Assembly (NCBI GenBank): GCA_965285935.1
Contig: OZ260661.1
Coordinates: 118,792,001 to 118,856,000, forward strand
From: Ophelia neglecta
Taxonomy: Eukaryota
Direction: 5' to 3'
DNA: 64,000 nucleotides
The notes beneath the pieces were generated by a model that was given only the letters and a program-made list of their open reading frames with translations, did no database searches and was not told where the DNA came from. Positions 6,178 to 62,982 of the stretch are shown here, piece by piece. Numbering within the stretch: position 1 is the first letter of the stretch; each line of letters begins with the position of its first letter. The position numbers and the translations under genes were made by a program.

Positions 6178-6629
6178 TCATAACTCTACACGTTTTTCTT
6201 GCCCTGGTATATCTTGTGGCAGCATGTCTGGCTGTGGTATTTCTTGCTTTGGTATTTGTTGTTCTGTTTTTTCTTGCTGCAGTGTTTCTGGTTGTGGTAT
6301 GTCTTGACCTGTTTTTTCTTGCTTCAGTATTTCTGGCTGCGGTATCTCTTGCTGTGAAGTTGTATCTGAAGTTTGATCACTGTTTGTGGCTGATACAGAT
6401 TGTTTTTCATTGCTGTCACCCTCCCCTTCCACTTGTACAGGAGCAGAAGGCAAGACTGGTTCTAGGATGTCTCTACTCAGGACTACTTTTTCATTACCAT
6501 TATCATCTTTTACTTCATCCAGTGGCTCCCTCTTTTGGTCTTCTTCACTCAAACTACTTTCTTTCTCTGGTGTGGTCTTTTTCTTCTTTTGCTTCTTTTT
6601 CTTTTTCTTCTTCTTGGAGCTATCTTTGG
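6178..6629 (-). CDS. CRELD: CRELD alternative last exon B (poly-Lys, acidic/Gln-Pro repeats, C-terminal RVEL)
   Basis: Acceptor ccttattccag| at 6630, phase 1 gives AKDSSKKKK..., in frame with ORF 6178-6552; TGA stop. Confidence 0.85.
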
Positions 6630-9600
6630 CTGGAATAAGGACATTTGAACATTTAATAAATAATAGTTTTAAACTTGGTTTGCATGGTGTAATAAAAACA
6701 AGATACTAGAACTATTTTCTGCAATTTATTTAAGGTACGATGGATGACAATGATGAAAAGATGGATAGTGAACTAATGAGAAATGACAAGTATAATAAAT
6801 TATCCTGAGGCTGGATTATTCATTCTAAACAAACCAGGTTTTTTTATCAGTATAAAAGTTACATGAAGGTTGAGAACCTCACAGAAACATGCAGCTTTTT
6901 GCAACAACTTAAATATATTTAATGTAGAAATGACTTACTAGTACTTTTTAAGGTATGAACCGACATGGACGTTACATTCAACAGAATCACATTAACGCTA
7001 GTATATTTTGAATTTGTTTGTTATAAATCTCACTGGGATTTTAAATACATATACAAAGTTTCAAAAATTACAAAGACATTTAGAATCAACAAGAGATTCC
7101 ATATTCAAATCGAAGCACACAAACTATAACTAATTTCCAAAAAAAAGAATCTTACATTTTAATTCAATTTCAGATGTATTTAATACGTTACAACCTTTGA
7201 AGAACCAATCACAACAGTGATATATAATACATTCTACAATTTTCTTTCAAATCGATTTGTAAACCAAAAGAGATAGAACCAATAAGTGATGGTGAAGACT
7301 AGCTGAGACACAACACTGTTTTGCAAAATTATTCCTACAATTGCAAAACCAACATAAGAAGCCAAAAGCTTCCAATTATCAAGGGAATTTATCTTTTGCT
7401 TCTTTTTTTTCTTTCCTTTGTTCTTCTGTTTACTGCTTGATGATTTGCCTGATGACTTTTTGTCTGAGTTTGAAGAAGAACTATTTTTACTGGAGCTATT
7501 TTTTTTCTGCGATTTACTTTTCTTTGAAGCAGGCACATCTACAAAGAGACGAGAGGAGACACCATGTTAGAGTGGACGAATAAAGGATTGTGGAAAGTCT
7601 TACACTCAGAAACTTACTTTATTTCTTATTTTTAAGTGCTGATCACTATAAACACACCTGTCAAATGGCTATTGGGAATATGGGAAAAAGGGAGGTAAAT
7701 CAAGCCATACAAGTTCACACCTAAATTTACTATTAAAGGAAGCAAAACAAGAGGCAAAGCAGTCAGGTCCAAACGATGTTTTACAACAGGAATACTATAT
7801 ACAGGAACTTAATTAATCAATTTCCTGGACGTTAGGGCTAAGTAGCCTAGGTTTGTACTAAAACAAATTTCAAACTTGTTTGTACTAAGCGATTAATTTG
7901 ATACCTAAGTTTTGTATTGACTCTAAATCAATGAACTTATGGTAAACACACATCAAGTCACCAGGTTAACATCAAGCAGTAAAGGAGTGCTGGGGATTTT
8001 TATTCCGAACAAAATGATAACAAGGTAAATCAACAATAGGCTTCCATCTAAACAAAATTGAATACATGCAATTACAGTATTGCAAGTGGTTCAATTTGAT
8101 TCTTAACCCCCCCCCCCCCCTCCCTAACCCCTAAAGTAGCAGTGGCATTACCTTACCAACTGACACTCTCATTCATCCGCCTCCCCCCACCCCCAATTAA
8201 AAAATGGAGTAGCCCTTTGTAGTTAATATTCTACTATACTGACCACAAGCAAGTGATATAACCCCTGGGCATTAGCTTGAAGCTAGTATCTGCATGCTGA
8301 ATGTCAATTATTTTAACATAACCAGCATAGAACAAGCCAGGTAGTATTTGTTTTTGTAATGATTAAATATTAAGCATAATTACATAATCCCAGCCAAAGT
8401 AAAATGTTCATACTTCTTTTGTATGTATTAAGTTAGCAAATGATAATACTAACTGACAATGAATGTGGAATCAGGTAAAGAAATAAGCATGGTTCCGTAA
8501 GCCCGGGCCTATCGTTTAAGCATCAGACCTTTTAGAATTCTACCCTCCAGGGCCTGCTGATTTTGAAGGTTACTGGCCCTGTCAGTCAGTATAAATTTTG
8601 TTCTTATTTCTAGCCCTGGTCTGCTTTTTTGCTTACCAGTATACACATGTTTGGGTTATTACTTTTAAAAAATGGGAGACATACTTTGCTCACCCACCCC
8701 CCCCCCCCCCTCCCCTCCTATTATTATATACACTTAGACAAGCCCACCTTTTGCTTTCACATCACATTTATCTTAAAACTCACCTTTTGCTTTAGCTTCA
8801 CATTTATCGTAAAACTCACCTTTTGCTTTAGCTTCACATTAACCTTAAAAACCCATCTTTTGGTTTAGCTTCACATTTATCCTAAACTCACATTTTGGTT
8901 TAGCTTCATATTTATCTTAACACTCACCTTTTGGTTTAGCTTCACATTTATCCTAAACTCACATTTTGGTTTAGCTTCATATTTATCTTAACACTCACCT
9001 TTTGGTTTAGCTTCACATTTATCCTAAACTCACATTTTGGTTTAGCTTCATATTTATCTTAACACTCACCTTTTGGTTTAGCTTCACATTTATCCTCTTT
9101 CTTGATGAAGCCCTCCTGACATTCACATCGGTAGGATGAAGGTAAGTTGACACAATTCTCGTTTTCACCTGGACAACTGCTTTCCTCTGTACATTCATCT
9201 ATATCTACAAGGAGGAGGCACAGGTTAATGTTCTTGTCACATGATATAAACATCAGTTTGCCTAGATGGCCTTTTATTCCTCATCAATGCTACTCATTCA
9301 GGACTACAATTTACTTATTCCCTCATCATATTTTCTCACATCATATTTTCACTAAAAGAACTATACTGATAATTTCTTGCTACAAAATCAAGCGGAGTGC
9401 ACAAACTAACCTTTACATTCCCCTTGGTCGTCTTTCTTGTAACCCTCTTTGCACTCCGTACAGAGTTGATTACCAGGGCCGGTGCAGCCACTACAGGCAC
9501 TGTGACAAGCTGTGGGTAAATATATATACTATACTCATCAAACACATACAACACCAGGCTCTATTGATTGTATACACTGAACTTTATACAGGGTCCTACC

Positions 9601-12600
9601 AAAAAATTTTAACTACAAAAGAGACGCGAGCACAAAAGACACAGGTAAATGAGAGAAAAAGAAAATAAAGGAAAGATGAGAGCATACTTACTGGAGCACT
9701 TAGACGAGCCTTCTGTGTTAATACAATACTGGTCCTCAGCACAGTTACCTTCACCAGACTCACATTCATTTTTATCTAAAAAAAAACACAACATTACAAA
9801 TATATGACGCAATTCTCCTAGCTTCAATGCAGAGGATGTATTTCAATGGTTGAAAAAACTATTATAATTATGAGAGCCAAGTTGGAACTAACCTATGCAT
9901 CCTTCGGGAGTGTGTTCCCAGCCACTCCGACAGGCATCACATGACGTGGGAGAGGAGTCAGTACAAGACATTTCGCATGATACATGACATGCTGAAATAG
10001 AAAATACACAATAACATTTAGACAGGAGGCTGGTAATACTTTATCTTCATAACACGCTGAAATGGAAAATATATGATAACATGAAGAGAGGAACCTGGTA
10101 ATAGTTAATCAAGTTTATCAGATATTCTGCACAGCATGTCCGAGCATAACATCACACTTTTCATAAATTAACTATGGTAGTATAAAACTGCAAGTTCTCA
10201 ATCAAATCAGAAACTAGCATGAGCCGAAATAATAATCTTATCTATATTTTCTAGTACCAAAACACATGATGCATAATCAATTCAGACCAGGACAATGGAT
10301 TGGGATTTAAAGGTAATGCTCTATGTTATTAGAGACTAAGATTAATTGAGCATGTAGACTATGTATGACTATACAACATTTAGTATTCACCTTTGCAGGT
10401 TTCGTTTTCTTTATAATATCTTGGATTACATTCATCACATTTATCTGATCCTGGTCCAGTGCACTCATCACAGGCATCATCACACTCTAAAAATGAATGA
10501 AAATGGATTAAAAATGAGTCAGTCCAGTAGCTGTAAATGTGTGTAAAGGACCCTAAATTACAATGAGAGTTGTGTCATCTAAACATACAGTTAAGAGCTA
10601 GTTATACTAAGTTTAAGTTAGTTTACATGTTAAGTTTACAAGTGAAGCTCAGTACTTCCTTGAACATGAGAAGAAGCCCTTAGTGATTTATAAGTTAAGT
10701 TTACAAGTTAAATTTTAAGTTTACAAGTTACGTTTACAAGATAAGTTTACAGGTTAAGTTCAGTACTTACTTGGACATAAGAAGGAGCCCTCAGTGTTCA
10801 TACAGTACTTATCATTCTCACATGGTGGCTCTTCCTTAACCTCACATTCATTAATATCTGCAAGAAAGAGTGTGATAAATCAATAATTATTTCTATTTTC
10901 ATCTGTGACAAATCAATAATTATTTCTATATTCATCTATCTATATTCTATAGTTCCAAGGCTAGTGTCGGCCATAAGAGTGACAATATCTTAGCAATAGA
11001 GAGGTGTAAGCCTAGGGGTAAGAGAGGTGTAATCCTAGAGGTAAGAGTGGTGTTAGCCTAAAGGATAAGACTGGTCATTTCTAGAGTAGCTCACCTTCAC
11101 AGCCCTTGTCTTCCACATAATTCCAGCCTTCTTTACAATCATCACATCCCTCAGGGCCCTCTCCCCAGCAGCTGGACTCACAAGCACTGTCACAAACTGC
11201 AACAACATAACAAACATTAATTTATGAACTCTTGTGATCATTCCTTGGAACAATTATTATATTTATTCGTTATCACACATCTAAATGAGGAAAAAACTTC
11301 AACATACTTTTACAGGAAATATGAGTATCATTTTTGCTCTCCTCAAAGTAGCCATTTGTACACTCATCGCAGACAATACCCTTGTAACCGTCGTCACATT
11401 TGCAGTTACCGTTGCCTTCTCGTGTACCATCACCCTGCAGAGCAATACCAGGATTTATGACAAGGTGTTAAGGGGTATTCATAAAACTGATCAAATAAAA
11501 TTGAGTAAATTCAAACTCCCTTTTACACAGCTTTGACTAAAAATATGTTTATCAAATTTGAAATATTTGTGTGCAAACCTCTCAAAATAATATACCATCT
11601 CACAAATGCACACCATGTAGGGTCTCCGCTTTTTCAAATTAAATTTTAGTAGTACATCATATTATGGAAAAACTGACACTCTGATAAACTCATTATTTTA
11701 TTTCTACATTAGAAGCTATGGACAAAAAGAATGTCACGGTCTTGTTTTAAATATTCTACCTGCATACACAAGTGCACTTACTAAACATTTGCCATTTCCT
11801 TTACAGGGTCTGTCTTTTCCACCTCTGCATTCATTGCAATTTTCCCCAAAATAACCTTGTGCGCAGCACACTGAAATTGATAATCTAATTTGTAAACAAG
11901 AAGTACCCAATACTGCTTTCTTTTACATACCCAATTACCTATTCAGATGATAATAAATGATAAAAGAAATTAAGTGATAAATTCATAATTTGACAAGGTG
12001 GCATAGGACTAATTAATCTAGAATTTAGGTTCAGAGTAAATCTCCTGCGTACCACTATTCTGGATATTCTGTTTTGAGTATATAATAAAGCAAATCAATA
12101 ACCTACATAAAACCAGTCCATGAAGATAAGTTAAACATACCTTGCAGTTTTTTGATACAGAGATATTCCTCCAGGTTTACATTTTTATGCTTGGCAAATT
12201 GTTTAAACCACCAATTCTCTATTGTTTCTTCTTGATGTTCAAGCATCATGTGACACTAGAATTCAAGGGTGATTCAAAATTGCTAATAGCCAGTTTACAA
12301 TATCAATATCATAATACAGTTATCGAAAAACACTTGCCAATTTAATGACGTGAATATAGCATACCTCTTTTCCTTCATCATGACAAATACCTTCAAGTAT
12401 CTCAATGAGCCTGGTTTCACTGTAAGGTAAAATGAATGCATTTGGGCAAAATTTGCTGAATGCAGCAACCATAATGTAGACCTTACTGAACTATCCTCAT
12501 AATTAACAAGAAGTTATTTTGTTCATTGCCTTAGATAGGCATGGTCATTTCAACTGCCTACCTGTGAGCATATGCTCCTAAGCTTTTTTCTTCCCAGTCT

Positions 12601-15835: not shown

Positions 15836-17054
15836 TTCCATATATTACTTATATTACCATCAAAACAAGGGGTTATGGAAAATGGTTGATAAAACCAGCT
15901 GGATAAAACCTACTGTCTGATACAACTTGGTTTTACTCCACAGGTTTTAAAATTATTTTGCTCTTCAAGATCATGAATGAACAAATCCATGCTTTGCTAT
16001 AAAATCAATGGTATGTTATAATCCTAGTCCCATATCTTGAATTTGTATTTCCAGTAATTTTTGTTATACTGTAGCTAATGCTAACAATGTTCGTGCATGA
16101 TTAAAGGTTGTGCTATTGCAAAAAAAGCACTCCACTTGTTTTTAATATCTTAGCTGGAGATATATAGGACCTGTATATACATGTACATCTACTTAGGAAT
16201 ACAATATCAAGGAGTTTTAATTTTTTGACTTCATATGGGAAATTAAACCCACCAGAACATTGTTTACCATTACAGTATTTTTCCTCGACTTCACAATTGC
16301 GTTCAGTTCTTCACCATCTCTTTTATCTGAACTTCAACATGTGCTAGTAATGACATAGGACAAGAAGGTGTATCAGGACACACACACTACAAGTTAATGA
16401 TGATTGAGACAAGGAACTCTGTCAAGGTCCTCTGTCCATACCTCAGCATCACTGCAATGCATATTCTATTGATGAAGATTGTACAAAATTCGCTTATGTA
16501 TTGCTTGTAGGTTTTGTACTACTACAGCAACAAAGCTTTGCATTCACCCATTTACCATTGGCTCTTGATTTTGAGCTAGGCTCACCTGTACTCCTGTAGC
16601 TAAAAAAATATTCAAAATCTATGCATATGTAAATATATCATGACACTTCTGAGAGTGGAGTTCCCATTGGTTGTGGCCTTGGTCACATAGAATTTTCAGC
16701 TAACTGTAGAAAATTTTTAATACCCCTGTATGAATTCCATGAAAGCTGAACTGGCTGCTATGCATTGGCAAATAACTCCCCCTCTGGGCTTATAGTTTAC
16801 AGAATTTGCTAGCCCAGTTGGGTAATGCCATACTATTTTCCTTTGTTTCTTCACTGCTTCTTCCAATAAGACTGAAAGGTTAGTGAGACATATTTTAAGG
16901 AATTTCACCCAACTAACAAATGTCTAGATTTATAACATTATTTTAATTCATACATGTACATGTAAAAAGGCAACATTCTAACATACTATTAAAAGTAGCT
17001 AGTATTTTTGGACCCTAGAATTGAGCACAATTTGGCCAGTTACATCATAACTGC

Positions 17055-17321
17055 TCAGTCATTCATTTTAACCAGTTCTAAGCCGTCCAAAGTGTCATAG
17101 ATTAAACGAGTGTTTCTGTTTATCTGCATTCCATACAGGGCGTCAGTAACAGCCAGGCCAAACTCAGGATCATCTTTTGATATAATCCCTCTCTCCACTA
17201 TAGCTATCATATTTATCATGGCATGGAAAAGAGTTGGTTTGTTTCTGGGTGTTGTGGAATTTTGCAGCGAGTTTGAACTGTATCCAGACCTTGTTGGTAG
17301 ATTGTGCATTGTTGTTACCCT
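17055..17321 (-). CDS. Predicted homeobox gene exon 2 (88 aa, compact C-terminal domain)
   Basis: RVTTMHN...KPTLFHAMINMIAIVERGIISKDDPEFGLAVTDALYGMQINRNTRLIYDTLDGLELVKMND*; good acceptor, phase matches exon 1. Confidence 0.65.
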   Translation of the reverse strand, partial: RVTTMHNLPTRSGYSSNSLQNSTTPRNKPTLFHAMINMIAIVERGIISKDDPEFGLAVTDALYGMQINRNTRLIYDTLDGLELVKMND

Positions 17322-20300
17322 CTGAAAGAAAGCAATTACAAGTTTTAAAGTAAGCAACTGACAAATTTAAAATTCTAATATGTCCAGTATATGTTCAAAA
17401 CAGGGCATCCAGTGAATACTTCTCAATATGGCATCGAATATACTAGTATAGTAGTGTGGTTGATCCAGACATGTTTAATTTAAGTAGTAATATTGTTTCT
17501 ATAGGCTGCAAGGGTGCAATAGATTTCCCATGGCCACCAATATAACATTTCATTTATAAAGTCATATTCAAAGCATAAATATTGTATTCAAATAGATCAT
17601 TTTAAAGGTAAATGACTGCAATTGATGGTGAAAAACTCGCAATATGATGACCAAATCCCTTGCCCCGCAAATTGCATTTCTACCACTTTTACTAGCCAAG
17701 ACAGTAGCGTATATATGAAAACACATTAAATAAATAATTCTCTGGAAATGCTACAATTGCCCAACATAATATCATCCAGTGATCAACAAGTGACCAGACT
17801 TTGGTTCAGGAGTAATGTAATACTGTAAAACCCTTTTATTTCGCGAGCCCTTTATTTCGCGAATTTCGCGAGTAGTATAAAAATCGCCAAATTAAAGGGC
17901 ACGTGAAAATTATGGGCTCGCGAATATTTAGTCCAGCAGTACGGAAGACGTGGAATCCTAGTAGAACAAATCGGTGTTGCAACGCATATCATAATGCGCA
18001 ACCTTCGGTGTTTTACCAAACGTCTCCGGCTTCCGTCAGCGTCCGGAAAACAAACAAACAAGATGTCAAGACAAACCACTTTAGGGACATACATAAATAT
18101 TGTCAAAAAACAATCCAACAGGAGGTCTAGGACATGCTGTGAAGATTGTTGGTAATTTTAAATAAACACTCAAAAGAATGATATGGTTACGTTCATTCCA
18201 TACTAAGGCCAGAAAGGTGGACTTTTTTTTAACATTTTTCAAAATATTCTAAAAGCGCGAAATTAAAGGGCAGCGAAATAATGTATTGCAAAACCGCGAA
18301 ATAAACGGGCAGCGAAATAAAAGGGTTTTACAGTATCTAATTTCATTATTGACTTAAAGTTAGTGTCATTGATGAAATAAAGTAGAATATTTGACTTAAG
18401 CTCATTTTAACCTTATTCAAAAGCGTCGGCGTTATAATTTACAGGATTACAATAATAAAGATGGTGAAAAACAGTGGGCCTTTTGTCTCCATTCATCTCA
18501 AATAAGTGGGCCTTTAAATGATCAGAGTGGGCCATTTCTTGTTTTACACACTACTTTATATATAGCAAAGAAACAATCAAAGACATGCCAAAAAAGTTTT
18601 ACTGTTTAAACAAACAACCTTCTCACAACTGATGGCGTGGCCGAGTGGTTAGGGCGTCCGCCTCGCAAGTGGGAGATCGGGGTTCTAGCTTCAATCACGT
18701 CAAACCTAAGACGTAAAAATAGGTACTGGTAGCTCCCCTGCCAGGCGCCCGGTATTTCGGAGGTAGTATCAGGACTGGTCAACCCGGTGTCAGTATAATG
18801 TGACTGGGTGGGGTTCCCTGTCTGGTGTCTACGGCAGGTACTCCAGTGAGGCAGCACTCTAAAGAGGGCATTGAGCCCACTGTCACAAGTAGGCACAGTG
18901 GCGATATGACCGATAAGTGTTGAAAGCCACGTAAAACCCCAAACAACAACAACAACACAACTGATGGCCTAGAAAACAGCCTCAAATAGAATAGAATTAA
19001 GTGTCACAACTGGGTGGCAAATGAATCTGCTAAACTTTCAATTGCAGCTATATCAAATGACAGTACCAGGACACTGATTATCACCATATAATTTTATGTC
19101 AAAAAGGGCACAACTATCAATAAATTGTACCAATGAGGAACACTACCAGGTGGTGGAAACTCTTAACTGGAAGATTGACCACACAATCCATTCGCCACAG
19201 TTTTCGGGATATTAAATGGTGTTTTGCCAGCAAGGGTACATGCAAGGGGCGATAATATGGGATGATCAATCGGTTATGTACCACTAATGATTGATTATGA
19301 AGTTCGCACTGATTGTAAACATTATACCCAACTGATAAATTTCACAAACAAGGGAATATGAGGTTTGATAGGTCTGGACAACTGTCAGACAATATTTACC
19401 TGGCTCTGCTGACTTATTTTGCTGTTAGACATCCATGGATTTTGACCCAATTCAGAGGTGTGTTTACTGCTCCCATTTGACACATTCTGGGACATCCCCG
19501 AATCGGATTCCCCCATCGCTTGACTTCCTGGGGGAAGGATGTTATTTTGGCAACAGCAACAACTGTTCATCATTGGATTGTCTTGGTGAAATTTTATAGG
19601 ACTCTTGATTGTTTTCTTCCTGTTCCTTTGCATGAAGGTTTTCATTTCCCATTTAAACCTAGGAATTGGCCTGGGTCGCACCCTTGCATTCATTGCAGAT
19701 TTCAAAACAGGCTTAGCCTCTGAAGTTACACAGTTAGAGGGAGAGATGCTGCCAATACCACGCCCGATTCTATCAGTTTTACTGCATGGTACATTCTTTG
19801 TCATTTTCCTCAGTATTCCTGACTTGCGTTTCATAATTTTCCTTTTCAGAAATGAAGGTGAAGGTCCAGAACTTTTGAGTATCAATCGTTTACATTGCTG
19901 GCCTACTTCAGTGGGCGATAATTTGTTAGCCTTCTGCAAAGTAAGTTCATTTGAAGTTTGGTAGGGACTTAAGTGAGTTGAAGAAGTACATGCAGATGGT
20001 TGGCCAGCTGGGTAGTCTTTCGTGACTTTGGTCGATTTAATCTCAGACTCACGGTTTTGAGCAGGACATATCTGATGTTTGATTGATGCAATATCAACTT
20101 CATGAACACATGATTCAAGGGCCTTTCTCTTCCTCTCCTGTGCATCAATAGAGTTACTTTCCTCATTACTATTAGCTTTTTCCTCTTCCCGCCTAGCTCT
20201 TGCTCTTCGATTTTGGAACCAAATACTCACAATCCTTTCACTCATCCTTAATTTCCTTGCTAAAATCCCTTTCTCGGTCTTGTTGGGCCATTGGTTGCCT

Positions 20301-20407
20301 TGAAAAGATCCCTCTAAAATGTTAAATTGAGCAGGAACTATCACTGTTCTTTTTCGCTTCTGTTTTAACTGTAGTTTTGTGTTATTAAGCTCCCTGTTAT
20401 CAGTCAT
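17055..20407 (-). CDS. Divergent Q50 (paired-like) homeobox protein, predicted two exons 20407-19400 and 17321-17055, 424 aa
   Basis: Homeodomain KRKRTVIVPAQFNILEGSFQGNQWPNKTEKGILARKLRMSERIVSIWFQNRRARARR. Strong donor CAG|gtaaat at 19400 (phase 0) and acceptor ctttcag| at 17322 (phase 0) join two open frames. Confidence 0.75.
17823..18333. mobile_element. Non-autonomous DNA transposon (TA target, Tc1/mariner-like MITE) in the homeobox intron
   Basis: Perfect 22-bp TIR ctgtaaaacccttttatttcgc / gcgaaataaaagggttttacag flanked by TA; subterminal cgcgaaa repeats. Confidence 0.88.
18634..18955 (+). mobile_element. tRNA-derived SINE (Meta/MESC-like core, (AAC)n tail)
   Basis: Box A TGGCCGAGTGG, degenerate box B ggttctagc, core ggtgtcagtataatgtgactgggtgggg, tail tgttgaaagccacgtaaaaccccaaac(aac)n; 13-bp TSD cacaactgatggc (18624-18636, 18956-18968). 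Confidence 0.88.
19400..20407 (-). CDS. Homeobox gene exon 1 (homeodomain in the first ~75 aa, then a low-complexity Ser/Lys/Pro region); unspliced ORF would end at 19385
   Basis: 340-aa ORF with WFQNRR helix 3 and L16, F20, P26, L34, W48, F49, N51, R53. Confidence 0.9.
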
Positions 20408-20605: not shown

Positions 20606-20617
20606 TTTGGCGCCAAA
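20606..20617. promoter_or_regulatory. Palindromic E2F-type site TTTGGCGCCAAA ~200 bp upstream of the homeobox ATG
   Basis: Exact 12-bp palindrome. Confidence 0.45.
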
Positions 20618-26700: not shown

Positions 26701-27549
26701 GATTTTTTACTGAAGATTGCCAAGTCTCCTCACGTTAGAAGCTAAACTGTCTGTCTGCAGCCAGCAGTGTGACCATACTGGGTTACCGGAGGTGTAGGTA
26801 CCTTATTATAGTAAGGGGAGGGGGGGGGGGTAACTTGTAGGTACCTTGATTATGTATGGTGGAGTCATGTGCAATTTGTACATGTAAATCTTAGTGTATA
26901 AATATGTATAATGTATAAATATATATATAGAACCCCCAAACAACTTAGTGTATATAGTATGTACATAGAACAATGTACCTATTTTGGGATTGATGGGGCA
27001 TTGTATAGTTACTTAAGGAGTGTACAGTTGGAATTTATTTCCTTGCAGTAAAGCTTGTGCTTACAGTTCATATCCCCGGTAGGTATTCGATATATGTGTA
27101 TATAACGATACATGAATACATTAGCGTGGAACATTATCCACACTTGTGACACTGATGCCTTAGGTGGAATTTTTTCTCAATTAATGTTGGAATAAGATGG
27201 AATACATCAGTGCCTTCTATTAATTATCATAATAAGCAGGCATATAACTCTCTCCTTCCCCCCCCCCCCACCCCTCCACCACCACCTAGCTCCCTGTCTC
27301 GTAGTAAATTGTCAACGAATTAGCCAGATACCACCTGCATTCCTTTTATATTGACATACTAGGCATCATGCTCTTGAGGCATAAAACGTATGGGATGGCA
27401 TTGCATTTCAAATCCATTGATCCAACCTTGTTTATATATGGGTATTACTGTTGTTAGTTGGACGATAGTGGACATTGAGGTTGGTCTACTGTCATGTATT
27501 GGAGGATGAGGCCGTCTTATGTCCAGGTCACATGGCAATACAAAAACAT

Positions 27550-29702
27550 CCAGAGGAGTAGCTGACCAGAGGAGTAGAGGAGTAGCTGACCAGAGGAGTA
27601 GAGAGGAGTAGCTGACCAGAGGAGTAGAGGAGTAGCTGACCAGAGGAGTAGAGGATTAGCTGACTAGTGGAGTAGCTGGCCAGAGGAGTAGAGGAGTAGC
27701 TGACCAGTGGAGTAGCTGACCAGAGGAGTAGAGGAGTAGCTGGCCAGAGGAGTAGCTGAACAGAGGAGTAGCTGAACAGAGGAGTAGAGGAGTAGCTGAC
27801 CATACGAGTAACAGATCAGAGGAGTAGAGGAGTAGCTGACCAGAGGAGTAGCTGAACAGAGGAGTAGAGGAGTAACTGACCAGTGGAGAAGCTGACCAGA
27901 GGAGTAGAGGAGTAGCTGACCAGAGGAGTAGCTGAACAAAGGAGTAGCTGAACAGAGGAGTAGAGGAGTAGCTGACCATACGAGTAGCAGATCAGAGGAC
28001 TAGAGGAGTAGCTGACCAGAGGAGTAGAGGAGTAGCTGACCAGTGGAGTAGAGGAGTAGCTGACCAGAGGAGTAGAGGAGTAGCTGACTAGTGGAGTAGC
28101 TGGCTAGAGGAGTAGAGGAGTAGCTGACCAGTGGAGTAGCTGGCCAGAGGAGTAGAGGAGTAGCTGACCAGAGGAGTAGTTGACCAGATGACCTGAGGAG
28201 TAGTTGACCAGCTGACCAGAGGAGTAGCTGACCAGTGGAGTAGCTGACTAGAGGAGTAAAGGAGTAGCTGACCAGAGGAGTAGCTGACCAAAGGAGTAGA
28301 GGAATAACTGACCCTACGAGTAGCAGATCAGAGGAGTGGAGGAGTAGCTGACCAGTGGAGTAGCTGACCAGAAGAGTAGAGGAGTAGCTGACCATTGGAG
28401 TAGCTGGTCAGAGGAGTAGAGGAGTAGCTGACCATTGGATTAGCTGAACAGAGGAGTAGAGGAGTACATGACCCTACGAGTAGCAGCTCAGAGGAGTAGA
28501 GGAGTAGCTGACCAGTGGAGTAGCTGGCCAGAGGAGTAGAGGAGTAGCTGATGGAGTAGCTGGACAGAGGAGTAGCTGAACAGAGGAGTAAAGGAGTAGC
28601 TGACCAGACGAGTAGTTGACCGGAGGAGGAGCTGGACAGAGGAGTAGCTGACCAGAGAAGTAGAGGAGTAACTGACCCTACGAGTAGCAGATCAGAGGAG
28701 TAGAGGAGTAGCTGACCAGTGGAGTAGCTGACCAGAGGAGTAGCTGACCAGTGGAGTAGCTGACCAGAGGAGTAGAGGAGTAGCTGACCAGTGGAGTAAA
28801 TGGCCAGAAGAGTAGAGGAGTAGCTGACCAGTAGAGTAGGTGACCAGAGGAGTAGAGGAGTAGCTAACCAGATGAGTAGCAGATCAGAGGAGTAGCTGAC
28901 CAAAGGGTAGAGGAGTAGCTGACCAGTGGAGTAGCTGGCCAGAGGAGTAGAGGAGTAGCTGATGGAGTAGGTGACCAGAGGAATGGTGGAGTAGCTGACC
29001 AGTGGAGTAGGTGACCAGAGGAGTAGAGAAGTAGCTAACCAGATGAGTAGCAGATCAGAGGAGTAGAGGAGTAGCTGACCAGTGGAGTAGCTGGCCTGAG
29101 AGTAGCTAACTAGAGGAGTAGAAGAGGAGCTGACCAGACGAGTAGCTGACTAGAGGAGTAGTTGACCAGATTTCCTGAGGAGTAGTTGACCAGCTGACCA
29201 GAGGAGTAGCTGACCAGAGGAGTTGCTGACCAGAGAAGTAGCTGACTAGAGGAATAAATGAGTAGCTGACTAGAGGAGTAGCTGACCTGAGAGTAGCTAA
29301 CTAGAGGAGTAGAAGAGGAGCTGACCAGACGAGTAGCTGACCAGACGAGTAGCTGACCAGACTAGTAGCTGACCAGAGGAGTAGCTGACCAGAGGAGTAG
29401 AGGAATAGCTGACCAGAGGAGTAGAGGAGTAGCTGACCAGAGGAGTAGTTGACCAGCTGACCAGAGGAGTAGTTGACCAGTTGACCAGAGGAGTAGCTGA
29501 CCTGAGGAGCAGCTGGCCAGAGGAGTAGAGGAATAGCTGACCAGAGGAGTAGAGGAGTAGCTGACCAGTGGAGAAGCTGACCAGCGGAGTAGAGGAGTAG
29601 CTGACCAGAGGAGTAGTTGACCAGCTGACCAGAGGAGTAGTTGACCAGCTGACCAGAGGAGTAGCTGACCAGAGGAGCAGCTGGCCAGAGGAGTAGCTGA
29701 CT
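27550..29702. repeat. ~2.15-kb purine-rich minisatellite of 8-bp (gaggagta) and 16-bp (gaggagtagctgacca) modules
   Basis: Direct reading; generates the spurious VSYSSTPL/WSATPLL ORFs. Confidence 0.95.
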
Positions 29703-31325
29703 ATATCTAGCTCTAACAATCGTGTTATGATATCAATTTAAGCATCACAACCAAGACAATGATGTATAAGCCATGAAGGATGGGCCATGAATAATGTATG
29801 AGCCTACTCCTAGCAGACTACAAGACACATTATTGCTTATCTACATGAATATAGAATACCAGCGGAAAAAAACATGGTGATGACCAGGAGTTCAGCTGCC
29901 TTGGAACTGAATGCCAGGGTAACTTGGTCCCAGAATTCCTACCATAAGATACATGTACATGTATGCTACCAAAGAAACATGGTGATTATATAATCTTATA
30001 TGTGCAGTACATCATCCCAGGTGGGAACAGTTTGGTCAATGTATACAGCATGGATCATGTATTTCCAATATTGTGTATGTTGTATGCATTCTGCATTAAA
30101 TCAAAACATCTTTTTTGATTACCAGATTTATGAAAGAGGATAGGCTTTAACAACTATTTTGTAGGTATTTAATAGAATACTACATCTATACACATAAATT
30201 ATGGCGATCATTTATTTTTAACGTGTTTGAGTGTGCATTCTCATAAGAGCAACCGGTTTGCTTCTCAAGGGACAATAATGTTTTATGCATACATGTGGAG
30301 GAGCAGTTGTGGTATAGGTTTACAGCTTTCTGGTGAATCCGTTATATAAAGTCAGTATCCATAAAACACTGGGAACATATCCACCTTACCAGTTGTGTAA
30401 TCCTGTAATAATGATCGTGTGATTTTGTTGAGACCATTAATGTGTCATCATTTGGGAAGTGTTTATATTTACAAAGAAGGATTTAATTGTGTGTTAGGCC
30501 TTCTGCAATTATGCTTTGCATAGGGACATAGGCCTAATGGCCATAAGCAAATTTTAATTGTAGCTTTGAAGGTACATTATCCTCCATTATAATATGCTTC
30601 ATACTCAAAGTGACACCTTAGAACTGTAATGACAGGTCACAGCCCATTATCAAACTAAGTGCCTGGACCTTGTATTCAGTTAAACATTTATTTGTCTGGC
30701 TGGCAGCACACACCATTCACCTACAGGAGCTTGTTTGACCCGGGGACTGTGATCAGACAGTAAACAACACAGCCTGCTGATAGCCTGCTTATCATTATTA
30801 GCATTAATACTTACAAATTAATACAGGGATGTCCATCCTGCAGGTAATGTTATAACACATGATAAGCTGGCTATACCTGTGTATCTGCTGATAGTCAGCT
30901 GTTAAGAAATTATCATCTCTGTGGTTCATGTACATACATGCATCTAGATCTAAGCACTTAACATATCTGATGATAACCAGGATAACTTATTAACACATAT
31001 GTATATTATATACATGTACTGCAATGATGTATAATGTATCAGAATCTGATAGTGATGGTACCGGTACATTTCAACACATGGATGGACTAGGTTTCCCAGA
31101 CACCAAGGATTGGTAAGGAGAGCTCCTTACACTATAAACACACAAAATACTACGATATACAACTGCTGTCTGACAGGATCTACTGGTAGTGTTATACTGC
31201 TCAATGAGCTACACTCGTACTATTTTTGGTCTAACACCACCTTGTTTTACTTTCAGGGAGATCCTAGGATTGAAGATGTAGACCTACATATGCAGATACA
31301 ATAAGGAGCATCATCTGCATTCTAG

Positions 31326-31391: not shown

Positions 31392-34300
31392 GTACCACTA
31401 TTGATTTCTCTGAATTATCTGCACAACTTAATGTTCATTGAGGAGAAATGAAACAGTGTTTATAGTGTTAAATACCCGAGTATAGTGTTAACTACAGTGG
31501 TCCATGCGATGAAGGGACCCTCCGATGAAGGGACCCTCCGATGAAGGGACTCCCTCTGACCACCAGATATTTTTCAGTGCCCATGTCCTATTTTTCCTAT
31601 CTTAATGTCCCTCGGATGAAGGGACACCTGCTATGTAGGGACACTTTTACTTGGATTTAGAGGTGTCCCTTCATCACAGGGACCACTGTACCTGGTAGTA
31701 AGCATACTGCTTAATTATGTGCCTCACTTCATATCGGTTTTGAAACACTATTTCGAAAAGTAATTAATTCTATATCAAAAGAAAATAAAGCAGAAATTAA
31801 TACACTCAGGGTTAAAAAATATAAATAGAATAATTGTAGAGAAGTAAGGCCACACTTTATTCAGCGGTTGGTGTCAACTACTGATTACATTGAGATTAGT
31901 GTATGGATCAAGGTCTATCATACTAGTATGACATTGGGTATGATCCCCAGTACCTCCTATTAGACTATTTAATACCTGTAGTCCTGTAATGTATACTCTA
32001 ACATTGCAAAACTTGACCAGTTTAGAATTAACAACCAGGTGGTATTTGTAAAAAAATATTTTACTTATTAGTAAGTCACAGGGTGTCATTGTTTTTCCCC
32101 ATTTGACTGAGTCGGAACTGCATGACAGACCAAATTATCAAGAAAGTCAGTTAGGATCGTAACATAGACAGCTGAAACTGGAGCTAAATTTAAACCCAAT
32201 TCATACTGGTGCCATTCTCAAGAAGGCAACCACCCCCGCAGTCTACGATATCAATTGGAAAAAAAACACCAGAACTACACTAAACAGATTGTAAACCCTA
32301 ACCTCTTGAAAACTGCCTATCATATGTGCCCTGTGTAAGTGGTAGATAAAATTTGTTCAGTTGGACTACTTTATAGTCATGTGCAATGTACATGTACCGG
32401 TAGTGCAATGATTTAATGTTTCTTTGTTTGAAAATGTCGGCTATTAAGTTGATTTGAGGACAATCCCCTTAAATAACTGTAATCCACCAGATGATAAATC
32501 GATCCAGGGTAGTTGATTTTATGCTTCAAATTCAAAGGCCACTACTTGAGCTATCAGTGTTTGATAGCCACCATTTTATTGTATTTTACCTGGTCCAGTG
32601 CATTAAAGTCCTTGCACTGAGGCACAGGTGTGAACATGCGGTCTTGAAAGCCATAGCCCCAAAAGACTTATTTTTGGCTCACATTTAAGGGTTTTTTATT
32701 AACCTTTTTTATTCGGTCATAGAAATATTTATATATTTTTGCGGGGTCAACAGCAAAATGAAGGCACCATTCAAAAGAGTGTGAATGACGTATATATGTA
32801 AGAGTTATGTACGAAAAATTTGTTCTCTATCTTTGTGTAATGATTGGAAGCCACTCAGTTGTGCTAGTATACCTTTCAAAGATGAAAGTTATGGGACCTA
32901 TTTCTCACGTAAGACAACAACTTTCCCTGGATGCTACAGACGTCTCGTACCTGAGGACACAAGTTTGACATACACCATTGAATTTAGCAGAAAATCACTG
33001 GAATATCACTTCAACAGGTAATGTCTTTATTCTCCACCATGTGAGTTTGGCATGAAATGGCAGTTTGTAAATACAAAGTTTGGTTTTGTGTTAATAGCTT
33101 TATGTAGTTTTGTTTGTATGCAAGGACAGTTTGATATGATATTCCAGAGTGAGACCTAATGCATAGCCACAGACTTTAACATGTTCAAAATTGATAAAAA
33201 GCTCTTCCAAATTGACCATACCTGCAATACCATACGCCGCCTGGTGGTGACCGCAGAACTACGGTTTTCGTACTTCCCGGTCGACCACTTTTCGCGAGCC
33301 ACTACGCATCCCGCTGCGCATGTTATGCAGGTCACCCAGGGACATGCGAACAGCTGATCAAGATGGCTTGACAGGCTGTCCCCAGTTGTTTCACGCGAAG
33401 TATTTCGGATCTCCAATCGCGACTCCTCGTTTATTATCCAATTGTTCTGGGTCGAAATGTCTAGAACAGAGCCTAGATCGTTTGTTCACGTTCAATTTGT
33501 CAACGATCGTGCAGTTTTCCTTCGAAGGTTTGCCTTCTCTTCGTACAAGGCGCCGCCATAATGCAACCGATGCCGGGTTGTCACGGGGCCATTTAACCCA
33601 AGATATTTGTTCCATCCAAGGATATTTGTCCAAGTGTTTCATCTTCCTGCTATGCGAGAAGCATTCTGCTGCCTCGCAGATAAACACCATCGTCCCTTCT
33701 TTCGTATTAAAGCTCAAAATAACGGTTGTACGACGCAGACCTCAGAATGCCATGAAAACGCCATGAAATGTTTATGACAGCTTGGGTACGCATACTGGAG
33801 TGGTCGACTTTTTTCCCACAATGCATTACGTTATCGTAGTTCTGCGGTTTCCACCAGGCGGCGTATGGTATTGCAGGTATGGTCAATTGTGTATGAGTAG
33901 ACTGTTGGTCAGGCAACTTTGCCTAATTAAGGGGGTGGTCATTATTTACAGGAGGGGGGAAGGCAAGGTTTCTGTACCGCCATATTCTTCAAAATGTTAT
34001 CCTGCCCCCTCCTGCATCAAACCCCTTCTTATTTTATTACCCTCCCATAAAAAAGGTTATTAATTCTGCATGTTCATTCCATGATTGGAATCGGGTATAA
34101 AACAGGCATACAGTGAAACCTGGCTAATATTAAGAACATACTATATAATTATATCCGCGAAATGCGGATATTATGTTTTCAGTAGCGCCGCCGCCGCCGC
34201 CGCCGCCGCCTTATGCCATGTTCCCCATTCGATTATTGCACGCATTCGCGGATATACCCCTTGCTGTCGGCCCCCCGACAGCGTTGGCCTAGTTTCAATA

Positions 34301-52300: not shown

Positions 52301-55300
52301 GGCAAAGTTAACAAGTTAATGACAACCATGACAACTACTTTGGCAACTTGGCTCTAAACCAAGGTCAGTGTGTGGAGGATTATCATATGCCTATCTAGGA
52401 GAACCATGGTCCATTGTAGTTTTGCCGTCATGTGATGGCTCTAATTACATGAATGTCGCAGTGAGAAAATACATATTATGGTACTTCCGGTCAATAAAGG
52501 ACAGACAGTGTAGTTGTCAAATGATATCAATTGCACTCTTTCTGCAAAAAATCTAATGGTTTGTATTTATAAGTAGTCTTTAACATCAATGGTTGAGTTT
52601 GAGTATGTATGATATATAGATTTTCAGAGGTGCTCTACTTTACACGATGATATATTGTTCTGGTGCTGTATACTCTTTCACTTTAGAAAACAATTCACAA
52701 TGTATATGTATGCCAAGGAAAGCATACAAGTAATTGTGTGTTTATAATAGCGGGAGTAATATATAAGACTGTCTCAGGGACTGGCAGATACCTGGAGTGA
52801 TATGTAGGACTGTCTCAGGGACTGGCAGATACCTGGAGTGATATGTAGGACTGTCTCAGGAACTGGCAGGTCCTGATGTGTAGGACTGTCTCAGGGACTG
52901 GCAGGTCCTGATGTGTAGGACTGTCTCAGGGACTGGCAGGTCCTGATGTGTAGGACTGTCTCAGGGACTGGCAGGTCCTGGAGTGATGTGTAGGACTGTC
53001 TCAGGGACTGGCAGGTCCTGATGTGTAGGACTGTCTCAGGGACTGGCAGGTCCTGATGTGTAGGACTGTCTCAGGGACTGGCAGGTCCTGGAGTGATGTG
53101 TAGGACTGTCTCAGGGACTGGCAGGTCCTGGAGTGATGTGTAGGTCTGTCTCAGGGACTGGCAGGTCCTGGAGTGATGTGTAGGACTGTCTCAGGGACTG
53201 GCAGGTCCTGGAGTGATGTGTAGGACTGTCTCAGGGACTGGCAGGTCCTGATGTGTAGGACTGTCTCAGGGACTGGCAGGTCCTGGAGTGATGTGTAGGA
53301 CTGTCTCAGGGACTGGCAGGTCCTGATGTGTAGGACTGTCTCAGGGACTGGCAGGTCCTGGAGTGATGTGTAGGACTGTCTCAGGGACTGGCAGGTCCTG
53401 GAGTGATGTGTAGGACTGTCTCAGGGACTGGCAGGTCCTGATGTGTAGGACTGTCTCAGGGACTGGCAGGTCCTGATGTGTAGGACTGTCTCAGGGACTG
53501 GCAGGTCCTGATGTGTAGGACTGTCTCAGGGACTGGCAGGTCCTGGAGTGATGTGTAGGTCTGTCTCAGGGACTGGCAGGTCCTGGAGTGATGTGTAGGA
53601 CTGTCTCGGGAGGGACTGGCATATACCCATAGTGGTATGTAAGACTGTCTCAGGAAGGACTGGCATATATCCATAGTGGTATGTAAGACTGTCTCAGGGA
53701 CTGGCATATACCCATAGTGATATGTAAGACTGTCTCAGGGACCGGCATATATACCCTTAGTTGTATGTAAGACTGGCATATACCCATAGTGGTATGTAAG
53801 ACTGTCTCAGGGACTGGTGTGTCCTGGAGTGATATGTAGGACTGTCTCAGGGACTGGCATATACCCATAGTGGTATGTAAGACTGGCATATACCCATATT
53901 GGTATGTAAGACTGGCATATACCCATAGTGGTATGTAAGACTGGCATATACCCATAGTGGTATGTAAGACTGTCTCAGGAAGGACTGGCATATACCCAAA
54001 GTAGGCTTTGTTCTGAGGTGTTGAATCACATTGCGAATTGGGTCATAGCTGAGATGACCGAATGATTAACCAGCACAAACCTCCCATGTTGTTCATTGCT
54101 TGCCGTGTTAAAATGAAAGTTACAATGTAGCATACAAATTTTATTTGACAGGTGTCAACAGTTGAATAAAGAAACCTGTCATAATAGTTAAGTATATCAC
54201 AGCTAATTCGTGACTTTTCCCGTAGTTTTGCTGCCAGTGATATCCCAATACATCTGGTGTTTGCAATAGATTGTTACCAGTACATTAATCTGCCTATAAT
54301 ACCTCAATATTTACATATTCTGTGTGCAAGGTTGTCCACTGGGCATATGTACATCATTTGGCCATCGCTGTTCTTAGACCACGCACCACGGCGCCTGCGC
54401 ACCAAAATCATCAGCGTGGCTTTACAAGAACGATCTATACCCATAGTGGTATGTAAGACTGTCTTAAGGACTGGTATATACCCATAGTGATATGTAAGAC
54501 TGTCTCAGCGACTGGAAAATACCCATAGTGATATATAGGATTGTCTCAGGCATTTGTTTTTGGTACTGGCTGTAGTGTGCAATGAATTTTTAAATGTTTT
54601 CCAATAGAGTTTTTTTTACTGGATACCTGTATGTGTATATGGATGGTGGATACTGCTATTAACCTGCATGTTAGCTGCCATATGTGCTGTGCAATAAGGT
54701 CGTATGGTTAATAAAAGTCATTTGCTAAGTCCCTCACATGACACCCATTTTTTGAAAAAATAAAAATACAATTTACTAGTCAGGCAATTATGGATGTTGA
54801 TATCAGTATATTAGATGTCATGTCAGATAAATTAAACAAAACATGTTGGGGTCCCCCGGGGATCAATAATTGGTCCACTGTTTTTTGTTATTCATTATTG
54901 ATTTGGCTGATATCAGCGAGGAAACATTTGTAGTCTTTTCGCGGATGACTCTGATGTGTTTGTCTCTGGCAACAACCCTAATGATCTTGTTGACATTATG
55001 AATATCGAGAAAAAATTACCCTTTGGCTTGAAGCGAATAAATTAGCTTTAAACATTAAAAAATACTCACTATGGGATATTTAAATCATGCTGCAGGATTG
55101 TGTCATATACATGTATATCATAAGTAATTTGATTTTGATTTTCTTCTAGCAGAACTCTAATTAGTTCATGTTTTTTATATTTCTACTAATGTTAAAACCT
55201 ACACTGTTTATACCCCTTGGCAATAAACAACATCAAACGTCCAAATGTGAGGATAATATTATCCTTTCTCTTTTTTGCAGTATTACTAATAGATTTATGA

Positions 55301-59200: not shown

Positions 59201-62200
59201 AATACAAACGAAACAATTACTTCCTTAAAAAAGATTATACACATGTATTATACAAGAGTTGTATGTCTGGGGTTGAAAAGTGAAATACAATTAACACTTC
59301 AGAGGTTGTAAAATTGTTTCTTTTCTTATTATATTCCATAGAAGCCTCTATGAATTAGTACCTTCTTGATCAAACACCCTGAAAACATCAAACAGTTCTA
59401 ATTTTGGCTTATTTCAAAACATGAATATGATTAACTCACAAGCAAGCATTTAATTTCTTGCTCCTCGGGCATCCAACCTAGTGGCCCTGCGTACTGCCAA
59501 AGAAAGGCTCGCTGTACAAGTTTATATGCCAACTCCAGGTTTTTAATATTTTCATGGAATTAGCAAGATAGTGCAATACCGATGTGCTTGCAATACTGGC
59601 CTTCTGCTTTGTGATGGATGTTACCCAGACACACATGAGAAAACCATCAAAAGTAATATTCTCCTGGCTTCTCCTGTACTTGACATACTCAATGAGCTCT
59701 TAAATGAAATGATTTGATCTATGATATCCATGTGTTTAGTAATTTAACGATGATAGCTTCCTGTTGTCCTTCGCCATGAGTCCTCTTTCCTCTGAAATGG
59801 GGGGCACGCGACTCCCCACATGGTCTCTCAGCTCTCTGTGATTGCGCTTTTTGATTGCTCAGCATGCTTCCATCGCCGATAAGAGTATATTTTGTTTCCT
59901 TAGTCAAGATTCTCCTAGCACAGAGCCAGGGCAGTCACTGTTATTATTCCCCCTTTTCATTTCTCTTGCCCCTTCATGGAAAGAGGAAACTGTATACTCA
60001 GACAAGTGTTATACTGGTAGCTGCTTTGAAATTTGCCTTGCATTAGTAAGGACATGTAGTTTAACTAAAAGTATACATGTTATTAACATATCATAAATGG
60101 CAAATAAAGCCTTCAGTGTATTTAAATCTTACTAGCAGAAAAATTAGTATTTCCGTCTCACGTTGTTCATTTATTTCACAGATGTCCTGCTTTGTGGAAT
60201 GGAGAGTTGTTTTCTCACCTTGTCTGCCATCCGGTCACCCTCACTGGCCAAGTTCCCGGAGCTGACTGAAGTTACAAGGCGCGTAGGACCCAAAACGGCC
60301 TGGACGCGCTCAGCCACCGAGTCAGCCTTCTACCGCTCCCTTCACTATCACCAGCAACAGAAACATCGCCGCTCCCGAAACCAGTCCAGCTCAGACTCGG
60401 AGGACAAGGAGGAACCCCCAATGTATCATGGGAAATATCGACAGACGGCCCCGGCCCCAAAGCTTCTCCTAGAGGACTCTGGTAGTCACCTTGGGGTTTT
60501 CCCAGGAGTTCTACATGGACAGTCGTCTACGGAGGAGCTTAGCGTTACATACTCTGAAGATTACGAGCTGGACCATGTGCCAAAAGTGCAGATCAATGCA
60601 GTAGACTTGTGTATACTTCTGTTAACTTTGTTAAAAGACTTGAGCCATGACGATGGCCCTCAAGTGGATAATAAAAAGTCAGTGTCCATGTCTTTGATGC
60701 CAAGTCTAGCCCAACTTTTCACCAGCTTCCATTATGATAATAATAATTCTACCTCCAGTATCGAGAGTTCAGATTTAGAGGATGCGGAGATGGGTGAAAT
60801 GCCAGAAGGATGGATGTCAAAGGATATCTCAGTACTTGAACGTTACATGGTGAGGGTGCTCAATACAATGGCCACAAATATAAGTGAGCAGTCAAATGGA
60901 CTCACCGTACTGCTCGCAAATGGTGCTTTGTCCTCAATTCTGGAGGTGGCTTGGTCAGTCATGAAGGAATTGGAAGCTCACAAGATTTCAAGTGTGTCAC
61001 AAGAAAGCACCAAAGGGTTGGACCAGCTTTTCCTAGTCAGTGATATTACTCATGGGGCCTGGCTTCTGTTACAGAGTGTTTTCACAACTATTCCCCTTAA
61101 CCCATCTATTCTTAAAACTGCCCTGAAACTGTTCAATGACATTGTAGTTAACCATGGTTTACAGCTGTTGGAGAGTGTTCTGCTGCAGTTTGAAAACCTC
61201 ATGCTTCATTCAGAGACAATATCCCCCCATGATATGCAATGTGCCAAAGATTCTGTGGTGAATCTAGTCATGACTATTTCCAGAGTGATCATAGCCCTGA
61301 AAAAGTCTAAAATTGACTATGTGCATGCTGTGAAATGCTCCAGACGTCGTCACAAGCGCTGTGATTACAGCAGTTACACTCACCACCACCACGATATCCT
61401 AGGGCTGTCAGGGTGTGGAGAACAGGACTTGATTGAGAGCACTGGCTATGGCAGCATGGAGACCCTCAACCACTCCCCTCAGCAGGTGGTAGGGTTCAGC
61501 ATGTGTGCCGTGTCTGCCCTCGGTGAATTCATCCTCCAACTCTACCAGAAAGCCACCTCCAAGGTGCTGCAGGTCCGTCTGCTCAAGTGTCTGGAGGAGG
61601 CAGGCGTCTGCTGCTGTATGAGTCCATCCTCCATCATCAAAATGCTTCTTTTTAACATTGAGGCACAGAGCTCGGCGGTTAGGAACTTCATTCTCACGGT
61701 GCTGGTGAAAGTACTGCTGGACCAGTGTGGCGGTGCAGCCAGTGTTCAAAACAAGACTGAGCTATGTGGTGTGTGTCGGGATGAAGACCATGAGACTATG
61801 TCCAAAGCAGGTGACACAGCTGGCAAAACATCAAAGGACATAGCGGTCAAACGACAAGAAACCTCGGACAGTGCTCTCTCAGGCAGTGACGCTAGTTTGC
61901 CTGATGACAGTCCGGCTGTCATGCCTAAATGGAGGTGCTTCAAACAACTGCAGGAGTTGATTTTGGGAGAAGACGAGGAGATGAACCTACAAGCCATGCA
62001 GCATGTGCTCCGATTTGTCAGCCAGGGCAGTTCCTTTGTACAACAGGAGCTATTTTACTGTATATTTCTTCCCGTACTTCAGGCATCAAAACAGCATTTT
62101 TTAAAGTCTGATCAAGATGGAGGCAACTCAATGGAATGGGAGTTGGATGCTGAGATATCCCCTAGTGTAGTACAGTATTGTTTGAGCGCACTCCCAGTTC

Positions 62201-62910: not shown

Positions 62911-62982
62911 GTAAGCTGATTTGATTAGTTCTGATTGTGTCATTGTATTCATGCATGTGTTGTACCAAGCTTGTTACTAATA

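Follow-up and report, generated by a model that had tools for sequence, protein, structure and literature searches.

A predicted two-exon homeobox gene in the window

The window, which is the whole 64,000-nucleotide stretch of the Ophelia neglecta genome analysed here (GenBank assembly GCA_965285935.1, contig OZ260661.1, positions 118,792,001 to 118,856,000), contains on its minus strand a homeobox gene with a predicted second coding exon, which encodes a conserved C-terminal domain. The first exon was recovered within a minus-strand open reading frame (ORF) of 340 amino acids (20407-19388) that terminates in VNIV and a stop codon, and residues 17-73 of this ORF match the Pfam Homeodomain family (PF00046) with an E value of 2e-16 and a score of 59.9 bits (cut-off 22.9). 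A donor, CAG/GTAAAT (slash at the exon boundary), lies at 19400/19399, after codon 336 and four codons ahead of the ORF stop, in phase 0, and an acceptor, TTTCTTTCAG/AG, at 17322/17321 opens an 88-codon frame (17321-17058) that is followed by a stop. Coding exon 1 (19400-20407, minus strand, 336 codons) hence comprises a short N-terminus, the homeodomain and a long linker of low conservation up to the donor, and coding exon 2 (17055-17321, minus strand) comprises 88 codons plus the stop. Their predicted join yields a protein of 424 amino acids with a single terminal stop, across a predicted phase-0 GT..AG intron of 2,078 nucleotides (17322-19399). On an ad hoc score, the donor ranked first among 53 GT sites in 19301-20407 and the acceptor joint first among 172 AG sites in 16001-19399, the co-top site lying inside a transposable element within the intron.

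This layout, with a donor four codons before the stop, an in-phase intron of 2.1 kb holding transposable elements and an 88-codon exon beyond it, is as the initial annotation had described it; the exons are observed as reading frames, and the splice that joins them is predicted. Three sequencing runs covered introns and flanks evenly and hence behave as DNA. At least seven differences are listed for exon 1 (19400-20407) in these DNA runs, four of them synonymous and three residue-changing, including G37A in the homeodomain.

Relatives of the C-terminal domain

A phmmer search with exon 2 against 1,835,955,588 representative proteins returned 33 matches at E<=1e-3, 15 of them at E<=1e-10, which places the similarity far beyond chance. 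A repeat protein (P0035), which aligned to query residues 13-39 only, was removed as a chance match; the 32 matches that were kept share an aligned block of some 55 residues (17067-17231, minus strand, in the window) and are 33-78% identical to the window's domain. In the alignment, Y63, G64 and Y75 are invariant and M, A, E and G positions are near-invariant; most conserved positions are occupied by hydrophobic residues or glycine, and the alignment shows no conserved basic patch. Names were looked up for 29 of the 33 matches: one is called "hypothetical protein", three carry a species and the remainder are nameless. The three are from the annelid Owenia fusiformis (CAH1791262.1), the brachiopod Lingula anatina (XP_013401844.1) and the hemichordate acorn worm Ptychodera flava (XP_070579171.1). 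In RefSeq, the Lingula protein is automatically named "Rax" and the Ptychodera protein "uncharacterized".

These three proteins, and no others among the 33 domain sequences scanned (exon 2 and its 32 kept matches), also contain a homeodomain. They have the same layout as the predicted window protein, with the homeodomain beginning at residue 11-18 and the C-terminal domain filling the last 59-68 residues; the linker between the two measures 80-154 amino acids, versus 291 in the window's protein. The proposal of a family defined by a homeodomain plus a conserved C-terminal domain is supported, and the gene could be placed in no named family. Its companion proposal, a fast-evolving gene specific to lophotrochozoans, does not hold: the hemichordate has the same two-domain protein, encoded on a 41.9-Mb contig, and the window's domain is 35-53% identical to the annelid, brachiopod and hemichordate proteins. 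Because a hemichordate member exists, the family is likely an old bilaterian one that spans protostomes and deuterostomes, rather than a young lophotrochozoan one. None of the 29 exon-2 matches looked up is a named protein from a vertebrate, insect, nematode or mollusc, which hints at losses from these groups.

Copy number and related metagenome loci

Of 48 candidates scored when the 762-Mb O. neglecta genome was searched with the Lingula protein, two and no more reached E<=1e-4. These are exon 1 of the window, at E 6e-11, and exon 2, at E 7e-6, collinear and on one strand. Exon 2 itself has one genuine match out of two in this genome, the other (contig C5, E 6.35) being rejected as chance, with an hhalign probability of 0.2%. 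Further, among 22 own-genome matches to the homeodomain, paralogues reach at most 43% identity. As far as the assembled sequence goes, the gene is single copy.

A pattern scan of metagenome contigs confirmed 27 of 123 candidate loci, which are mutually close and near the query subgroup. An ungapped core of the domain could be taken from 25 of the 27 loci, 19 of these cores being distinct. Across the 19, the ratio of nonsynonymous to synonymous substitution (dN/dS) had a median of 0.09 and a maximum of 0.37 in 165 of 171 pairs, saturated and near-identical pairs being left out and the pairs being non-independent; these values indicate purifying selection on the domain. An in-frame acceptor, CAG/G, precedes the domain in 22 of the 27 loci and a conserved upstream exon ending in an in-frame GT donor is present in 11, evidence of phase that is one-sided, since the scan took in-frame splice sites alone. 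This upstream exon appears to start at another acceptor, in a lineage with extra introns. In two loci (L139:4344-4520 and L140:4345-4521), the domain exon appears to start within the first helix, which suggests an additional intron inside the domain. The otherwise variable linker exon conserves a short motif, RRILPA (L116, L120, L124, L125, L132-L134 and L137-L140), that might act in docking as a linear motif; the linkers of Lingula and Ptychodera contain comparable I/L-x-P-K-like words.

We consider it probable that the window's gene is a single-copy member of a homeobox family common to annelid, brachiopod and hemichordate, encoding a TAAT-binding factor of 424 amino acids with a protein-binding C-terminal domain. 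The two limits just named, on the dN/dS pairs and on the phase evidence, weigh against this reading, as do three further results. First, 29 of the 32 kept exon-2 matches lack a homeodomain; we take them to be probable single-exon ORF calls on genomic contigs, the DNA being unseen for most of them. Second, a search of longer proteins with a domain profile found none among 7,989 candidates, the known Owenia and Ptychodera proteins being missed too. Third, none of the 27 related loci shows a homeodomain within its upstream DNA, which reaches at most about 4.7 kb; the homeobox of that lineage may lie farther upstream or may have been lost there.

These observations, with most database matches and all 27 loci showing the domain on its own and with the window's linker so much longer than those of its relatives, are what would be seen if exon 2 were not spliced to exon 1, being instead a separate small gene, or if the main product were the 340-amino-acid, intron-retaining form. 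We regard this as very unlikely. The exons are collinear and in phase and use top-ranked splice sites, both parts occur in one chain in three proteins from curated genomes, and the only strong genome matches of the Lingula protein are precisely the two exons. Moreover, no AATAAA or ATTAAA occurs on the coding strand from the exon-1 stop to 17856, the first 1.5 kb past that stop, and the domain forms the C-terminus of each of the three full-length relatives, which leaves the short isoform once suggested for this gene unsupported.

Placement of the homeodomain

The homeobox is uninterrupted (20183-20362, minus strand; residues 16-75) and encodes R5, I8, W25, P26, K31, I47, Q50, N51 and R53. With W48, F49, N51, R53 and the match to PF00046, the domain belongs to the homeodomain superclass. 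Since its 57 matching residues correspond to PF00046 positions 1-57, the three-residue insertion of the TALE class between helices 1 and 2 is absent. The unusual features first pointed out in it, namely I8, F13, W25, Q50 and a helix 3 without an intron, are all confirmed. As a trait of the family, F13 was rejected, the four relatives carrying M, L, L and L. These relatives are the Owenia, Lingula and Ptychodera homeodomains and that of a nameless, homeodomain-only ORF (P0003), which came from a word-based protein search with the homeodomain region that kept two of 28 candidates; the other, a fungal protein (P0004), was dropped as unrelated, having neither I8 nor W25. The same kind of search with the whole ORF gave none of 540 candidates. 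Among the five homeodomains, 15 columns are invariant, including R5, I8, W25, P26, K31, Q50, N51 and R53, and W25 occurs in none of 54 other full-length and none of 46 further homeodomain rows from the same genome. When the ORF, exon 2 and the three full-length relatives were scanned with Pfam, homeodomain families alone gave meaningful scores, with zinc-finger, LIM, POU-specific, CUT and SIX domains absent; the paired domain likewise had no match in the ORF or the three relatives.

The five homeodomains form one clade, with support of 98/88 in a tree of 59 rows and 100/95 in one of 83 rows, the latter after 21 of 104 rows had been removed as near-duplicate, misaligned or junk and with intron-split rows cut to their first 46 residues. 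The references in these trees were homeodomains from the O. neglecta genome, labelled by class by eye, and the bootstraps were not fully settled. In the best tree, the family clade falls outside the 22 PRD-labelled homeodomains and loosely beside the LIM, POU and ZF rows (89/95, not starred). In neither tree does it fall within the HOXL or NKL rows, although the separating branches were not starred; P26 is atypical of the ANTP class. Approximately unbiased (AU) tests rejected neither a grouping of the family with PRD (p 0.449) nor one with Lopx (p 0.497).

Relative to the PRD-class genes without a paired box (Rax, Arx and Phox, and also the PRD clades I-VI of Paps), the family has P26, Q50 and A54 in common, and the PDB sequences closest to the window's homeodomain are PRD-class (DUX4, Phox2 and Gsc). 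In contrast, the PRD class has F8 and Y25 where the family has I8 and W25, along with K31, and the PRD-labelled rows of the same genome share at most 17 of 46 residues with the window's homeodomain. An intron between homeobox codons 46 and 47 is typical, if not universal, in the PRD class; the exons recovered for the 22 PRD-labelled rows stop at position 46, whereas the window's homeobox has no intron in helix 3. OAR is a short motif of PRD-class proteins, and in its stead the window's family has a folded C-terminal domain of 55 amino acids. The resemblances, and the AU test that leaves the family free to join PRD, speak for a young, fast-evolving lophotrochozoan duplicate of the PRD class, of the type expressed in early embryos. 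This origin is highly improbable: besides the uninterrupted helix 3, the hemichordate member contradicts restriction to lophotrochozoans unless it is contamination, the gene is single copy and its domain is under purifying selection.

The other named systems offer partial likenesses. I8 occurs in seven of the 54 other full-length homeodomains of the genome, all labelled by eye as ZF (Zfhx, Zeb), LIM or POU, and none of these has W25. Lopx, as described in PMC6118893, is likewise an unclassified Q50 homeodomain of annelids and Lingula with a family-specific C-terminal motif, and pipelines mislabel both, with Lopx described there as lophotrochozoan-only (Barton-Owen et al. 2018). By eye against eight Lopx rows from that source, its homeodomain differs in having Y8, Y25, an RERFSY/RERLSY arm and GIT-R-Q-V-K before helix 3, as opposed to I8 and W25. 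The genome also has a separate Lopx-type gene at C1:130.93 Mb (L113, L141), with an arm of the annelid type seen in Capitella and Platynereis, and the C-terminal domain has no match within 9.9 kb around it. Membership in Lopx was accordingly rejected, on the difference from the published rows compared and on this separate gene with no domain nearby. For a companion domain that defines a homeobox clade, Paps et al. 2015 (PMC5322547) provides a precedent in PADRE, a novel domain of about 87 amino acids. On that account, PADRE lies N-terminally in molluscan TALE proteins, unlike the domain described here, which is C-terminal, accompanies a homeodomain without the TALE insertion and is found in protostomes and deuterostomes.

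The AU tests also leave room for a family that is real but already named, whether among the orphan families, such as Ahbx1 and Muxa/b, catalogued for amphioxus, sea urchins or hemichordates or as a lophotrochozoan PRD, NKL or CUT clade. We hold this to be unlikely. The RefSeq labels of the Lingula and Ptychodera proteins point away from an established name. In the supplement of Barton-Owen et al. 2018, which includes homeodomain alignments with Lingula Lopx and amphioxus Aprd1-6, the family motifs WPS, WPN, WPD, RTII, RTVI and RSII do not occur, and the Aprd1-6 homeodomain rows shown carry neither I8 nor W25; no family-type row stands in the places shown of the Paps et al. 2015 supplement. Finally, no name for the family was found in the literature searched, including PMC6125248, PMC7566022, PMC12257675, PMC4729200 and PMC4758240, with subscription journals and HomeoDB2 outside this coverage. 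The family is apparently unnamed.

Structure and possible roles of the two domains

An AlphaFold2 model of the exon-2 domain, built from a 23-sequence alignment, has 55 residues with a predicted local distance difference test score (pLDDT) of at least 90, arranged as two helices (31-42 and 54-63) followed by three strands (65-67, 71-76 and 80-85). The inference that the last 60 or so residues form a folded domain is thus upheld in the model, as helices plus strands. In a model of the full-length Lingula protein, two confident domains flank a linker with a pLDDT of 43-54, and the predicted template modelling score (pTM) is 0.41. Hence, the homeodomain and the C-terminal domain are predicted to be independent folds joined by a disordered linker of 80-291 amino acids.

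Comparison of the domain with structure and sequence databases returned little. Foldseek with the domain model found no match at E<=0.001 in PDB or BFVD, and the best VIA-align match among 48,161 chains had a Z of 2.9 with a root-mean-square deviation of 3.6 over 46 aligned residues, which is noise level. Pfam gave nothing above cut-off for the domain sequences (two stray single-member rows, E 0.002-0.005), PHROGs matched none of the 23 and NCBIfam one, a stray. The top hit of a PDB sequence search with the domain had an E value of 0.63. The ESM Atlas yielded no usable domain match, the Lingula protein reaching generic homeodomain clusters alone (0.86-0.87). The companion domain thus appears uncatalogued, and the absence of a structural match does not establish a new fold.

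On the homeodomain side, the arm arginines R3 and R5 together with I47, Q50, N51 and R53 read a TAAT core, the basic N-terminal arm of homeodomains serves nuclear import, and a tyrosine at position 25 usually contacts the DNA backbone. By its residues, the window's homeodomain would therefore be expected to bind a TAAT core through the arm arginines and I47/Q50/N51/R53, and its basic arm would serve nuclear import; in this family, W25 stands in place of the tyrosine. On its long, flexible tether, the C-terminal domain would dock a protein, either another copy of itself or a co-factor. This role is the most likely one because the domain is small, folded, mostly hydrophobic in its conserved positions and terminal on such a tether. 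We think a dimerisation or co-factor docking module a good bet, with self-association and co-factor docking about equally likely.

A different role, as a second nucleic-acid-binding domain or as a small-molecule sensor that tunes the homeodomain, could be read into the succession of helices and a beta wing, which recalls winged-helix proteins, into weak VIA rows for TrpR- and DeoR-like proteins (Z 2.1-2.6), and into an invariant E, Y-G and Y that, together with a near-invariant R, could line a pocket. All structural matches are at noise level, however, and the predominance of hydrophobic and glycine positions with no conserved basic patch speaks against such a role. Nucleic-acid or ligand binding seems rather improbable.

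Upstream of the gene, a perfect palindrome, TTTGGCGCCAAA (20606-20617, strand unassigned), lies 199 nucleotides 5' of the start codon as a candidate promoter element, and PMC5449588 lists the sequence among E2F1 motifs. With one mismatch allowed, it occurs once in the window against 0.15 expected, a count that 15 of 100 shuffles also reach, and its genome-wide count is 121, compared with 38 for a reversed control; the palindrome was noticed after the fact and in a single species. An E2F-type site would tie expression to dividing or germ-line cells, which we treat as a weak lead and a doubtful one. Past the other end of the gene, about 108 nucleotides beyond the exon-2 stop, an ATTAAA (16942-16947, minus strand) is a candidate poly(A) signal by sequence only.

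Other features of the window and genome

Two transposable elements lie within the intron. The first, which holds the co-top acceptor site, resembles a miniature inverted-repeat transposable element (17820-18336, strand unassigned), with 47-nucleotide terminal inverted repeats (17820-17866 and 18290-18336) that are 87% complementary, and shows raised depth. The second, of very high copy number (18637-18944, strand unassigned) and flanked by 24-nucleotide direct repeats (18613-18636 and 18945-18968), is labelled as like a short interspersed nuclear element from its size, copy number and flanks.

Elsewhere in the window, three minus-strand intervals (9062-9842, 7237-7566 and 6181-6705) contain calcium-binding EGF matches, one above cut-off at 9062-9280 and one below at 9612-9842, and the ORFs that come after them have low-complexity stretches of hydrophobic and basic residues; together they are possibly one EGF-repeat membrane-protein gene. 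A THAP-domain ORF on the minus strand (33394-33741; E 1.6e-5, above cut-off) may represent either a THAP gene or what is left of a transposon. On the plus strand, an open frame of 923 codons (60148-62919) has no significant Pfam or PDB sequence match, and may resemble a large LYST exon. Two regions (27500-30000 and 53000-54200) are strongly skewed and repetitive, with many low-complexity ORFs.

Downstream on the same chromosome, 215-560 kb away, the nearest homeoboxes (C1:119.03-119.37 Mb; L021, L054, L024 and L055) are presumably one NK3-like, two NK4/tinman-like and one Vax/Noto-like, making linkage of the gene to NK genes possible. Tandem homeobox expansions at C1:123.41-123.51 Mb, C1:22.86-22.99 Mb and C2:104.98-105.05 Mb consist of what we take to be five Hhex-like, five NK2.2-like and four Pax3/7-like genes, and the genome presumably also has three Msx-like and two engrailed-like genes.

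Implications for the bilaterian homeobox repertoire

The homeobox genes of bilaterians are regarded as catalogued for the most part, with companion domains (POU, LIM, CUT, SIX and paired) defining several of their classes. In the most far-reaching interpretation, which we put forward tentatively and at somewhat less than even odds, the gene represents an overlooked family of the protostome-deuterostome ancestor, possibly of class rank, marked by I8, W25 and a companion domain of new fold, and left unnamed on account of its loss from vertebrates, insects and nematodes. Published developmental transcriptome resources exist for Owenia, Lingula and Ptychodera and make the family directly testable, and at 55 residues the domain is small enough to be a convenient target for solving its structure and finding its partners. 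An annelid-brachiopod-hemichordate family that has a folded companion domain of its own would enlarge the ancestral bilaterian toolkit by one entry, and would show that families absent from model organisms escape the surveys anchored on them.

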